NCBI GenBank assembly: GCA_046744435.1
Contig: JBKPFP010000224.1
Span: 1-30,483 of the forward strand
DNA: 30,483 nucleotides
Direction: 5' to 3'
Source: Actinomycetota bacterium
GTDB taxonomy: Bacteria > Actinomycetota > Thermoleophilia > Gaiellales > Gaiellaceae
Shown here: positions 24,843 to 26,961 of the stretch, in pieces
Layout of the letters: every line of letters begins with the position of its first letter
Numbering within the stretch: position 1 is the first letter of the stretch
The notes under the pieces: model-generated
The model's input: only the letters and a program-made list of their open reading frames with translations
Database searches by the model: none
Told to the model about the DNA's origin: nothing
Program-made: the position numbers and the translations under genes

Positions 24843-25492
24843 AGGGCCGCGAGCGCCTCCTCCGGCGGCAGGATGCGGTCGGGGTCCGCATCCTCGACGT
24901 GGAAGGGCCCGACCGCGGTGCGGCGGAGCGTCACGCAGTGCCCGCCGAGCGCCTCGGCGATCGAGCGGACGTAGCCGCCCGAGCTCACGCCGACGCGAAG
25001 CCTCGCCACCCGACCGTCATAGCTGATCAGGTCCAGGTCGTGCACGGTCGTGCGCCGGGTCGGCATATCCACCTGCACGCCGCGCCGGAAGAGCTTGTAG
25101 GCCCGCTCGCCGCCGATCTTGACGGCCGAAGCGGCCGGAATCGGCAGGTCGACCTCGCCGCGCAGCGCCTCGATCTGCTCCCGGAGCTCGTCCTCGGAGG
25201 GCGGCTCCGCCTCATCGACGACCTCGCCCTCCGGGTCGCCGGTAGTCGTGGTCGTCGAGAGGTCGACCTCGGTCTCGTACTCCTTGTCGAGGCCGACGAA
25301 CCGCGACGCCTGCTTCGTGAAGGCGCCGAGGACGACGAGCAGGAGACCAGTAGCGAACGGGTCGAGCGTGCCAGCGTGGCCGGCCCGGGCGCCCGTGCGG
25401 TTGCGCAGGTCGCGCACGACGGCGAACGACGAGGGCCCGGCCGGCTTGTCGACGAGCACGAGGCCCGACGGAGTGAGCGCGCGGGGCGGCAC
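24839..25492 (-). CDS. truB: tRNA pseudouridine(55) synthase
   Basis: LVDKPAG, GHAGTLDPFATG, TTTTGDPEG, SAVKIGGERAY, SSGGYVRS. Confidence 0.96.
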   Translation of the reverse strand: MPPRALTPSGLVLVDKPAGPSSFAVVRDLRNRTGARAGHAGTLDPFATGLLLVVLGAFTKQASRFVGLDKEYETEVDLSTTTTTGDPEGEVVDEAEPPSEDELREQIEALRGEVDLPIPAASAVKIGGERAYKLFRRGVQVDMPTRRTTVHDLDLISYDGRVARLRVGVSSGGYVRSIAEALGGHCVTLRRTAVGPFHVEDADPDRILPPEEALAAL

Positions 25493-26496
25493 TACGACCT
25501 CTGGGACGCGGCGAACTCCTTGCGGAGGAACTCCGTGATCTCCTCGATCGAGGCCTCGCTCGAGAAGCCCGCGGCCTGGCGGTGGCCTCCCCCACTCCCG
25601 GACTTGCGCGCGATCGCGGAGACGTCGACCTCGTCGGAGGACGCGCGGAGGCTGACGCGGCGCATCGGGCCGCCCGAGCGCGGCGGCTCGCGGATAAGGG
25701 CAGCCATGTCGGCGCCCTCGACCGCGCGCAGGTAGTCGATGATGCCCTCGGAGTACGGCTCGGCTGCGCCGACCTCGGCGAAGTCGTCGCGCAGGAGGTA
25801 CGAGACGACGAGTCGCCCGCCCTCGTAGACCTGCGCCCGCTCGAGCGCGCGGGCGAGCAGCTTCAGCTTCGCGAACTGGACGTTCTCGTAGACGACCTGG
25901 AAGACCTTGTGCACGTCGGCGCCGGCCTCGACGAGCTCGGCAGCGAGGCGCAGCGCCTTCGGGGTCGTGTTTGCGTACTGGAAGCGGCCGGTGTCTGTGA
26001 CGAGCGCGATGTAGAGCGGCTCGGCGATCTCGGGCGTCAGCTCGACGCCGAGCTCAGCGAAGAGGTCGCGGAGGATCTCGCCGGTCGACGAGGCGTCCGG
26101 CACGACGAGGTTGACCCCGCCGAAGCGCGTGTTGTCGTGGTGGTGGTCGACGTTGACGACGAGCGGCGCGCTCGCGAGCACCTCGGGGTCGGGGCCGAGC
26201 CGGCTCTCGTTCGCGCAGTCGACGGCGAGCAGGACGCGCTCGCCCGCATCCGTCGGCAGCTTGCGCTGCAGCCCGTCGAACGGCATCCAGGCGTACTCGC
26301 CCGGCAGCGGCGCCTCGCCGGCGAGGTAGAGCGTCGCGTCCTTGCCGAGCGCGTCGAGAGCGAGCTTCGTGGCGAGCAGCGAGCCGAGGGCGTCGCCGTC
26401 CGGGTTCTCGTGGGTCGTGACGAGGAAGCGGTCGTTCGACCGGATCGCGTCCGCGACGGCCGCCAGCTCCGACTCAGTCGTCTGGGGCGAGCTCAT
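25492..26496 (-). CDS. nrnA: DHH/DHHA1 phosphoesterase (NrnA-like nanoRNase/pAp phosphatase)
   Basis: HENPDGDALGS, VDC, DHH, DTGRF, GGGHRQAAG; in the usual rbfA-truB position. Confidence 0.9.
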   Translation of the reverse strand: MSSPQTTESELAAVADAIRSNDRFLVTTHENPDGDALGSLLATKLALDALGKDATLYLAGEAPLPGEYAWMPFDGLQRKLPTDAGERVLLAVDCANESRLGPDPEVLASAPLVVNVDHHHDNTRFGGVNLVVPDASSTGEILRDLFAELGVELTPEIAEPLYIALVTDTGRFQYANTTPKALRLAAELVEAGADVHKVFQVVYENVQFAKLKLLARALERAQVYEGGRLVVSYLLRDDFAEVGAAEPYSEGIIDYLRAVEGADMAALIREPPRSGGPMRRVSLRASSDEVDVSAIARKSGSGGGHRQAAGFSSEASIEEITEFLRKEFAASQRS

Positions 26497-26656
26497 CGAT
26501 GAGTTGGGACCTGAGGCACCGCTTGCGGTGCCGACGTCAGGGTGGCGGGCTTGCCCGCCGCTCGTCTGCACTGAACTGTCGAGCGGCTGATGATCCCACG
26601 AACGATCATGAGCTCAGCTCGAGTCGTCTGGGGCGAGCTCATCGATGAGTTGGGAC
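26476..26656. mobile_element. 111-bp structured insert (26511-26621) flanked by perfect 35-bp direct repeats (26476-26510, 26622-26656)
   Basis: AGTCGTCTGGGGCGAGCTCATCGATGAGTTGGGAC occurs twice; the interior folds into four hairpins. The repeat is certain, mobility is inferred. Confidence 0.7.
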
Positions 26657-26961
26657 ATGCGGACGCCGCGCTCGACGGTCGGATCGTATTCGAAGGCCAG
26701 CGTCGGGGTCCGTTTCAGTCTGAGCTCGGCGGCGATGCGGGCTTGCAGGACGCCGTGAGCCGAGGCGAGCCCCTCGAGCGTCCGCACGCGCTTCCGCTCC
26801 GAGCCGAGGACGCTGACGAACACGCGTGCGTGCCGCAGGTCGGGCGAGGTCTCGACGCCGGTGACGGTGACGAACCCGATCCGCGGGTCCAGGAGCGAGC
26901 CTATTCCCTCGGAGAGCACCTCCTTGATCGACTCGTTCACGCGTCGCATCCGTGAAGTCAT
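26614..26961 (-). CDS. rbfA: ribosome-binding factor A
   Basis: RMRRVNE.I...L, DPRIGFVTVTGVETSPDLRHARVFVS, LRLKRTPTLAFEYD. Confidence 0.97.
   Translation of the reverse strand: MTSRMRRVNESIKEVLSEGIGSLLDPRIGFVTVTGVETSPDLRHARVFVSVLGSERKRVRTLEGLASAHGVLQARIAAELRLKRTPTLAFEYDPTVERGVRMSQLIDELAPDDSS

Follow-up and report, generated by a model that had tools for sequence, protein, structure and literature searches.

How can a short insert that encodes no enzyme come to lie between two overlapping genes, with a copy of the overlap itself on either side? This question is raised by a 30,483-nt stretch of DNA from a Gaiellaceae bacterium (Actinomycetota; Thermoleophilia; Gaiellales; GenBank assembly GCA_046744435.1, contig JBKPFP010000224.1, positions 1 to 30,483 of the forward strand), which is called the window below and belongs to a 2.8-Mb metagenome-assembled genome (MAG; G000, 492 contigs, 76% complete). 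At the junction of rbfA and nrnA, a perfect 35-bp direct repeat (26476-26510 and 26622-26656, start-to-start spacing 146) encloses 111 bp (26511-26621), and the 35-mer occurs exactly twice in G000. The insert is probably a non-autonomous mobile repeat that resembles the interspersed repetitive units of mycobacteria (MIRUs), and its old insertion would have duplicated the rbfA/nrnA overlap in the same event.

Insertion at the rbfA/nrnA overlap

Both genes are encoded on the minus strand and are intact. The left copy (26476-26510) contains the ATG (26496-26494) and 14 nt of leader of an nrnA-like DHH/DHHA1 phosphoesterase gene (25492-26496; Pfam PF01368 and PF02272), whose N-terminus, MSSPQTT, is conserved among relatives. 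The right copy (26622-26656) codes for the C-terminus SQLIDELAPDD of rbfA (ribosome-binding factor A, 26614-26961; Pfam PF02033 RBFA, 5.8e-29), which ends within the right copy in its longer, original extent (see below). The locus was assembled in 23 genomes of the genus, of which 16 have an empty junction, with rbfA (...ELAPDDxx*) overlapping the nrnA start (MSSPQTT), and seven have a filled one, in every case with an element of the same family in the same orientation. A preliminary description, made from the letters of the window, had read the arrangement as the insertion of an enzyme-free sequence flanked by a perfect 35-bp duplication that left both genes intact. This is borne out by the sequence, the unitigs described below and the empty orthologous sites: rbfA relies on the right copy and nrnA on the left, and the insert encodes no enzyme. 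The 12-bp palindrome (CTCATCGATGAG) noted in the same description is present in both copies (26492-26503 and 26638-26649), but is dual-coding host sequence that pre-dates the insertion and not a feature of the element.

A collapsed or chimeric join had to be considered in a MAG of 492 contigs, as repeats often break or mis-join assemblies. All junctions (left flank/left copy, left copy/insert, insert/right copy and right copy/right flank) were covered by Logan unitigs from four independent soil metagenomes (X1-X4), which come from different samples and studies; examples that span junctions are X1 record 5 (26481-26643), X3 records 19 and 20, X4 records 29-31, and X2 records 9 and 11. The left copy is joined to the left flank and the insert by X1 record 2, X2 record 9 and X3 record 19, and the right copy to the insert and the right flank by X3 record 20, X4 record 31, X2 record 11 and X1 record 7. 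Unitigs are interrupted only where a 35-bp repeat makes a break in a k=31 graph unavoidable, and relatives assembled to long-read grade carry homologous filled sites. Because unitigs of four metagenomes support each junction, misassembly, which the preliminary description had named as one way in which its reading could fail, is very unlikely, and we treat an assembly artefact as practically negligible.

A repeat family with a covarying fold

Fifty-one copies of the first ~80 nt of the insert were found in G000 using BLAST and an nhmmer profile. A covariance model (R1) was built from 43 copies and used to score at most 46 candidates per genome; it gave 45 matches in G000. The window copy ranks 42nd of the 51 nhmmer matches (E = 1.8e-13; R1, 64.8 bits, E = 7e-13), its low rank being due to a mutated tail, and is among the most diverged members of the family.

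The family unit is ~97-105 nt long and consists of CT(G/A)AGG, hairpin 1, a linker, hairpin 2, a tail, a variable region and a 3′ end, in that order. In the window, where the element reads on the plus strand, the 5′ terminus is CTGAG (26511-26515); since the empty site reads GGGAC|ATGCGG, this CTGAG is element-borne. Hairpin 1 (26515-26532, GGCACCG-CTTG-CGGTGCC; family consensus, GGCRYCG-CTTG-CGRYGCC) is kept, with compensatory changes, in 172 non-identical copies of the family. It is followed by a short linker with a terminal TCAG and by hairpin 2 (26540-26563), which has an 11-bp stem with two G·T wobbles in the window copy and a 10-12-bp stem with many double changes across the family; hairpin 2 is missing in a few copies (C322, C391). 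The unpaired tail (consensus GTCTGAAMTGACCGGTCGA), the most conserved block of the family, is present in the window in degenerate form (26564-26582). Beyond it lie ~25-30 variable nucleotides (26583-26608), shared by no two copies at different loci, and a 3′ end of the R-TGAG or CTAGG type. The window copy ends in TGAG (26609-26612), of which the T is absent from the target and the GAG overlaps ancestral sequence, such that a TGAG-type tetranucleotide is found at each end of the element; judging from its position, the 3′ TGAG would act as junction microhomology or as the target tetranucleotide. Two copies (L114:924 and L040:2334) have an extra hairpin nested within hairpin 2, which makes them ~25 nt longer, and may form a subfamily.

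The plus-strand fold gave -55.2 kcal/mol (z = -3.9). In RNAalifold analysis, 11 of 19 pairs showed double compensatory changes, and both hairpins covary. Among the 172 non-identical copies, pair 9-18 is CG in 100 and TA in 60, pair 6-21 is GC in 136 and AT in 25, and pair 32-54 is AT in 109, CG in 28 and GC in 16. The covariation check that had been proposed was thus positive, and a unique insert lacking conserved structure, which had been named as grounds for dismissal, is contradicted by a 51-copy family with covarying hairpins. Four hairpins had been described in the insert. All four complementary segment pairs are present, but only hairpins 1 and 2 are found family-wide; the third and fourth, which fall in the tail and the variable region, are private to the window copy, and the 3′ region of the family is structured at the level of flanking DNA (median z, 0.07 versus -4.06 for hairpins 1 and 2 together).

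Direct tandem arrays are common; their periods range from 97 to 151 nt and in most cases cannot be divided by 3. At G059:C6:491599-491979, 504990-505372 and 426013-426297, at G086:C89:67087-67388 and at G008:C2:64260-64644, 3-4 or more units follow one another at periods of 101-151 nt; such arrays are potential markers of the variable-number tandem repeat type for these uncultured lineages. As far as could be found, the family is undescribed: literature searches returned nothing on Gaiellales repeats, nor on miniature inverted-repeat transposable elements (MITEs) with long duplications at overlapping genes.

Orientation and strand bias

Relative to flanking genes, 42 copies are sense and 34 antisense between co-directional genes, 12 lie between convergent and 13 between divergent genes. 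On the top strand of the element, G·T pairs outnumber A·C pairs 188:29 (hairpin 1, 62:9; hairpin 2, 126:20), from which it follows that the fold has been selected on the top strand as a single-stranded nucleic acid. The bias is alike in sense (58:5) and antisense (35:6) copies, and the constraint therefore does not come from the host transcript. It may instead be the signature of a single-stranded top-strand intermediate of the element's own.

A different reading is that the family is a functional structured RNA (an intercistronic stabilizer, an attenuator or a small RNA), with the window copy regulating rbfA and nrnA. Strong covariation and the G·U-type wobble bias would suit such a role, as would the location of many copies inside operons and a core that is 75-95% conserved even between genera while the 3′ part drifts. 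However, orientation is balanced, the wobble bias stays with one strand of the element whether a copy is sense or antisense, the window copy is antisense to the rbfA/nrnA operon, and the family is patchy among genera, high in copy number and commonly arrayed in tandem; an Rfam scan of the region gave chance-level matches only (E ≥ 1.5). We regard a host RNA function as improbable. Of the earlier suggestion of a new structured RNA family, the existence of an undescribed, structured, many-copy repeat family stands, while the RNA-family reading is disfavored by balanced orientation and by a strand bias that ignores transcription. Metatranscriptome runs contained 4-6% of the sampled words.

Phylogenetic range

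An exact-motif scan of one genome per species matched only uncultured Gaiellaceae, Gaiellales and "Actinomycetes" soil MAGs. With the covariance model, positives numbered seven among 26 genomes of the window's own family, none among 74 spread over the order's other four families and one among 150 sampled across the phylum. Positive genomes have 8-45 matches each (within the limit of 46 candidates scored), except G119, which has a single match, and some closed genomes of the window's own family are element-free. This patchy, high-copy distribution is the pattern of a mobile element. The only genome outside the order with model matches, G288 (another family of the phylum, 6% contamination; contigs C164 and C172), reaches 72 bits at best, and its matches could reflect contaminating contigs or horizontal transfer.

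Target site and comparison with MIRUs

To define the normal target, copies of other species were compared with empty orthologous sites in G000. Junction-proximal sequence was too diverged for split alignment of most pairs, leaving only ~8 clean pairs. In six of these (L083, L036, L101, L092, L057 and L088), the empty site is an RTGAG stop/start overlap with one TGAG, and the filled site has TGAG on both sides. Stop codons of neighboring genes fall at element positions 2-5 and ~97-115. In sense copies, the 3′ part carries a Shine-Dalgarno-like motif, with A or G before the 3′ TGAG, such that the start codon of the downstream gene is regenerated.

These properties recall MIRUs which, in the summaries of Supply et al., 1997 given by two later papers, are units of 40-100 bp present in 40-50 copies, with tetranucleotide direct repeats at filled sites and ends that overlap adjacent genes (PMC3184786), and which insert at start codons and contain a coupled open reading frame (ORF) (PMC12548453). 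The Gaiellaceae repeat is similar in unit length (97-105 nt versus ~40-100 bp), copy number (51 copies versus 40-50 loci), direct tandem arrays, G+C-rich internal inverted repeats, tetranucleotide direct repeats in filled versus empty sites, ends that lie over the stop and start codons of neighbors, and an occasional bridging ORF coupled by a 4-nt overlap; for both, the mobilizing enzyme is undescribed. It differs in that a coupled, co-oriented ORF is not general: of the 76 copies within operons, 34 are antisense, and most array periods are not divisible by 3. The host lineage (Thermoleophilia/Gaiellales) also differs, and no sequence relationship was detected, the comparison being one of descriptions (model R1 found nothing in 149 of 150 phylum genomes). 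The resemblance would thus be functional only. To our knowledge, duplications of 40-71 bp, as found in this family (below), have not been described for MIRUs, nor has the way in which MIRU-type units move ever been established.

The clearest MIRU-like case is a sense copy in another Gaiellaceae MAG (L083:6235); the corresponding site in G000 is a stop/start overlap of the form GTGA, and the gene downstream of it starts with (V/M)..HGKNYR. This copy contains a 34-codon ORF that runs from a GTGA overlap to an ATGA overlap, with a GGAGGA motif 7 nt before the rebuilt ATG. In the window, a 38-codon ORF on the transcribed strand (26493-26609, minus) starts 4 nt past the rbfA stop and runs as far as the nrnA start, with which it overlaps in ATGA; it could be a relay for translation or a product of chance. 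Similar ATGA-ending ORFs are present at L023 and L024 and absent from L025 and L026, and the relay reading is not claimed here, as the ORF is unconserved across filled sites. With stop codons rare at 70% GC, the ORF is not significant alone.

Age and extent of the duplication

The identical 35 bp are part of a longer duplication. Window positions 26610-26621 (GAGCTCAGCTCG), which lie on the outer side of the right duplicate, agree with the ancestral rbfA tail of empty sites, stop codon included (TCA at 26614-26616 on the plus strand), and their first ten bases, GAGCTCAGCT, match the empty sites of G011 and G010 in register (10/10) and resemble the G006 and G024 junctions. The duplication was therefore originally at least 47 bp long. 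The corresponding outer part of the left duplicate (26462-26475; register partner, 26608-26621), which now codes for nrnA residues 8-12, has five mismatches in the 13 nt that adjoin the perfect repeat. In run X1, a co-occurring strain variant has five differences at 26455-26473 (nrnA codons 8-14) and an unchanged repeat. This outer flank of the left copy is the fast-evolving part. The same comparison corrects the statement that rbfA had gained Ser-Ser from the insertion: relatives with empty sites end in DDPS*, DDPA* or DDGE*, and G006 in DDRS*, so the SS* tail is ancestral flank and not a gain.

The filled junctions fall into three types. Type A comprises the window and G006, which shares the right junction position with the window, contains two tandem units and has lost the left duplicate; at the G006 junction (L022), nrnA apparently starts at a new GTG beside the element (VQVAEAIRSHD...), which implies that the first ~12 NrnA residues are dispensable or replaceable. 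Type C (G024) has an internally deleted element with both junction positions as in the window; AGCTCATCGATGAG is perfect on both sides, and the remaining duplicate is 20/26 identical. In type B (G012, G005, G014 and G001), only 0-5 nt of the left copy remain past the nrnA ATG, the right copy has accumulated synonymous changes, and a frameshift carries the end of rbfA into the element. Type-B copies come from one event, as they have a derived tail in common and match one another best (56-81 versus 43-49 for other copies). Within their clade, six empty genomes are interspersed among the four filled ones, which calls for several scarless losses or for allele transfer. Similarity of element bodies was also tried as a test of G000/G006 orthology and was uninformative, the window copy being diverged and the G006 copies consensus-like.

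The insertion is thus old and shared with other species in decayed forms. G000 is sister to G009 (support, 99/95 for nrnA and 91/82 for rbfA), which has an empty site, and the outer part of the left copy shares TCAGTCGTC with that site. The simplest reading is an insertion older than the divergence of G000 and G009, and probably older than that from G006 as well, in which case G009 would have lost the insert and one repeat by repeat-repeat recombination, keeping the DD* configuration of the left copy. The alternative to an old insertion followed by loss in G009 is import of the filled allele by homologous recombination. Identity of the inner 35 nt may reflect constraint plus gene conversion.

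Long duplications at other loci

The preliminary description had asked for other copies with different flanking duplications. Copies are plentiful, but among the 49 testable in G000 only the window copy has a long flanking duplication. In a boundary-anchored search of 161 copies, two more single copies, L063 and L076, proved to have long duplications whose limits coincide exactly with the element. At L063, the duplication is 71 bp (66/71 identical) and repeats the last 24 codons of a histidine kinase gene; the element is antisense, as in the window. The empty sites (G052 and G007) contain the kinase stop, an 8-39-nt spacer and the next gene, and since the genes do not overlap there, the duplication was not needed to keep them intact. 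At L076, ~40 nt regenerate the N-terminus of the downstream gene, and an empty ortholog is found in G000. On this evidence, long duplications look like an occasional outcome of insertion.

A minimal integrase-mobilized element had also been suggested; read in this way, the insert would be a miniature integrative element moved by a site-specific recombinase, and the 35-bp repeats would be its attL and attR. A repeat of this length is typical of att sites that regenerate a gene end, and a palindrome within it would fit. However, neither the 35-mer nor any long shared flank was found at any of the other 48 G000 copies tested, what was duplicated is ancestral host sequence, of which each of the 16 empty sites has one copy, the palindrome belongs to dual-coding host DNA and varies among relatives, and no recombinase gene lies nearby. 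We consider an att origin very improbable. Within an older duplication that was at least 47 bp long, the 35 bp form the core that is still identical; they are neither an att site nor a normal target duplication.

A harder alternative to dismiss is an origin in two steps, in which a tandem duplication of ~49 bp first un-overlapped rbfA and nrnA and the repeat then inserted at a TGAG in the new spacer. Before insertion, the junction between the copies would have held CTGAG (GGGAC-CTGAG-CTCAGC), which fits the target of the family, and tandem duplications are common and would be neutral here. This order of events is nonetheless unlikely: at three independent loci (the window, L063 and L076), the two copies flank the element exactly, none of the 23 genomes examined has the duplication but lacks the element, and filled states of at least two kinds, which differ in their boundaries (type A/C and type B), each have the element at the copy junction. 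Because of this exact placement at three loci, and because no genome carries such a duplication without the element, we favor duplication as part of the insertion event.

Mobilizing enzyme and related systems

No transposase or integrase gene is adjacent to the window element, and no longer, autonomous version sharing its 5′ end was found in G000, where partial matches are hairpin-2-deleted variants or fragments. Genes of the Y1/HUH type, which resemble the tyrosine transposases associated with repetitive extragenic palindromic sequences (RAYTs and REPs, respectively), are present in nearly all genomes of the genus (1-3 per genome), and Y1_Tnp genes in 69 of 101 genomes of the order, element-free families included. 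A few genomes flagged as unpublished (G074, G155, G161 and G347) are counted in such tallies, and no individual claim depends on them. The surroundings of eight Y1_Tnp genes (±1.5 kb at six loci, and the entire contig for two in G000) contained no element copies, and two of the eight genes have different hairpins of their own. One, at C339:9590-9913 (minus), has a hairpin of the ACAGGGTCTGACCCTGT type on both sides; the other, at C442:3624-3947 (plus), is followed by a CCATGTCCGGTGCC/GGCACCGGACATGG hairpin. These two may be separate REP-like systems. A RAYT/Y1 link was rejected on the basis of different flanking hairpins, lack of nearby elements and lack of co-occurrence with the element.

Comparison with characterized classes gave partial likenesses. 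Like REPs, bacterial interspersed mosaic elements and the RAYTs that accompany them, the Gaiellaceae repeat has a short G+C-rich hairpin after a conserved tetranucleotide, is extragenic or intra-operon in both orientations and occurs in clusters, and its strand-specific hairpin bias would fit an enzyme acting on single-stranded DNA; however, the unit is larger, with two different hairpins and an unpaired conserved tail. Like MITEs of DDE transposases (e.g., IS5- or IS630-derived), it is small, non-coding, multi-copy and often at gene ends, with a short apparent target duplication of T-N-A/TAG-type sequence. Unlike them, it has no terminal inverted repeats visible in alignments, its 3′ 25-30 nt differ between all loci, its duplication is not of fixed length (4 nt as a rule, with three loci at ≥47, 71 and ~40 nt) and its wobble bias indicates a single-strand fold. 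In the IS1182 family, direct repeats may reach ~60 bp. The only lead on unusual targets among DDE elements is that some members of that family are said in PMC5678879, citing Siguier et al., to insert into palindromes. With the palindrome-associated transposable elements derived from IS200/IS605 (PATEs), the repeat shares top-strand-specific hairpins, a tetranucleotide beside the left end and a lack of inverted termini; it differs in having no conserved right-end hairpin, no linked TnpA/TnpB that could be found, no lagging-strand orientation bias seen in G007 (a weak test) and a true target duplication. Candidates for the mechanism are target-primed synthesis, template switching at TGAG microhomology or an undescribed nuclease.

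Proposed mechanism and implications

In some Gaiellaceae genera the family has reached roughly 20-50 copies per genome, and it normally lands on TGA-G stop codons or RTGAG stop/start overlaps, leaving TGAG on each side. We propose that movement proceeds through a single-stranded top-strand intermediate made by a putative enzyme, such that the fold would be selected whatever the host transcription. At rbfA/nrnA, one end of an old antisense insertion would have been joined at the rbfA stop and the other end ~47 bp from it, duplicating the whole overlap in the same event, and the product would have been kept by selection, as both genes were intact. The outer 13 nt would then have diverged, and the inner 35 nt would have stayed identical, or been re-homogenized, via coding constraint and probably gene conversion. 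The direct repeats would permit scarless loss, as the sister species G009 appears to show.

Several observations weigh against this account. No young copy pairs were found, similar pairs being orthologous loci only, and true termini and current mobility are accordingly not demonstrated. Conservation of the core in place could instead mean a host function. The family has no transposase, integrase or longer autonomous version that could be found, and the RAYT-like Y1 genes go with other hairpins and are equally present in element-free genomes. The closed genome G007 shows no visible replication-strand bias (15 plus, 23 minus; no two-domain pattern; a weak test, as ori and ter are unmapped), which is awkward because a single-stranded DNA mechanism like that of IS200/IS605 would predict one. 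The element bodies of G000 and G006 are not mutual best matches, and orthology between them is consequently judged by junctions only. Finally, no differences in the inner 35 nt beside five in the outer 13 nt are awkward for a simple old duplication and call for gene conversion or recombinational import of an allele.

More tentatively, the family may use an undescribed mechanism in which a single-stranded top-strand intermediate is joined at TGAG, typically at a stop codon, and target-primed or template-switch synthesis with a loose second junction yields duplications of 4 to ~70 bp. If true, this would add a new mode to bacterial transposition and give MIRU-type elements their first mechanistic foothold, with reversible un-overlapping of essential genes as a by-product.

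Small repeats of the MIRU, REP and MITE types are common. The Gaiellaceae family offers many clean filled/empty comparisons across species and a clear TGAG target at stop/start overlaps, and this target, a fold that is independent of transcription and rare element-bounded long duplications together constrain the mechanism, a practical weakness being that all hosts are uncultured soil bacteria. The rbfA/nrnA site indicates that insertion into overlapping genes can be tolerated via duplication of the overlap, and may later be erased scarlessly by recombination between the repeats. Duplication of an overlap followed by its loss would be a concrete route by which gene overlaps and translational coupling are remodeled.

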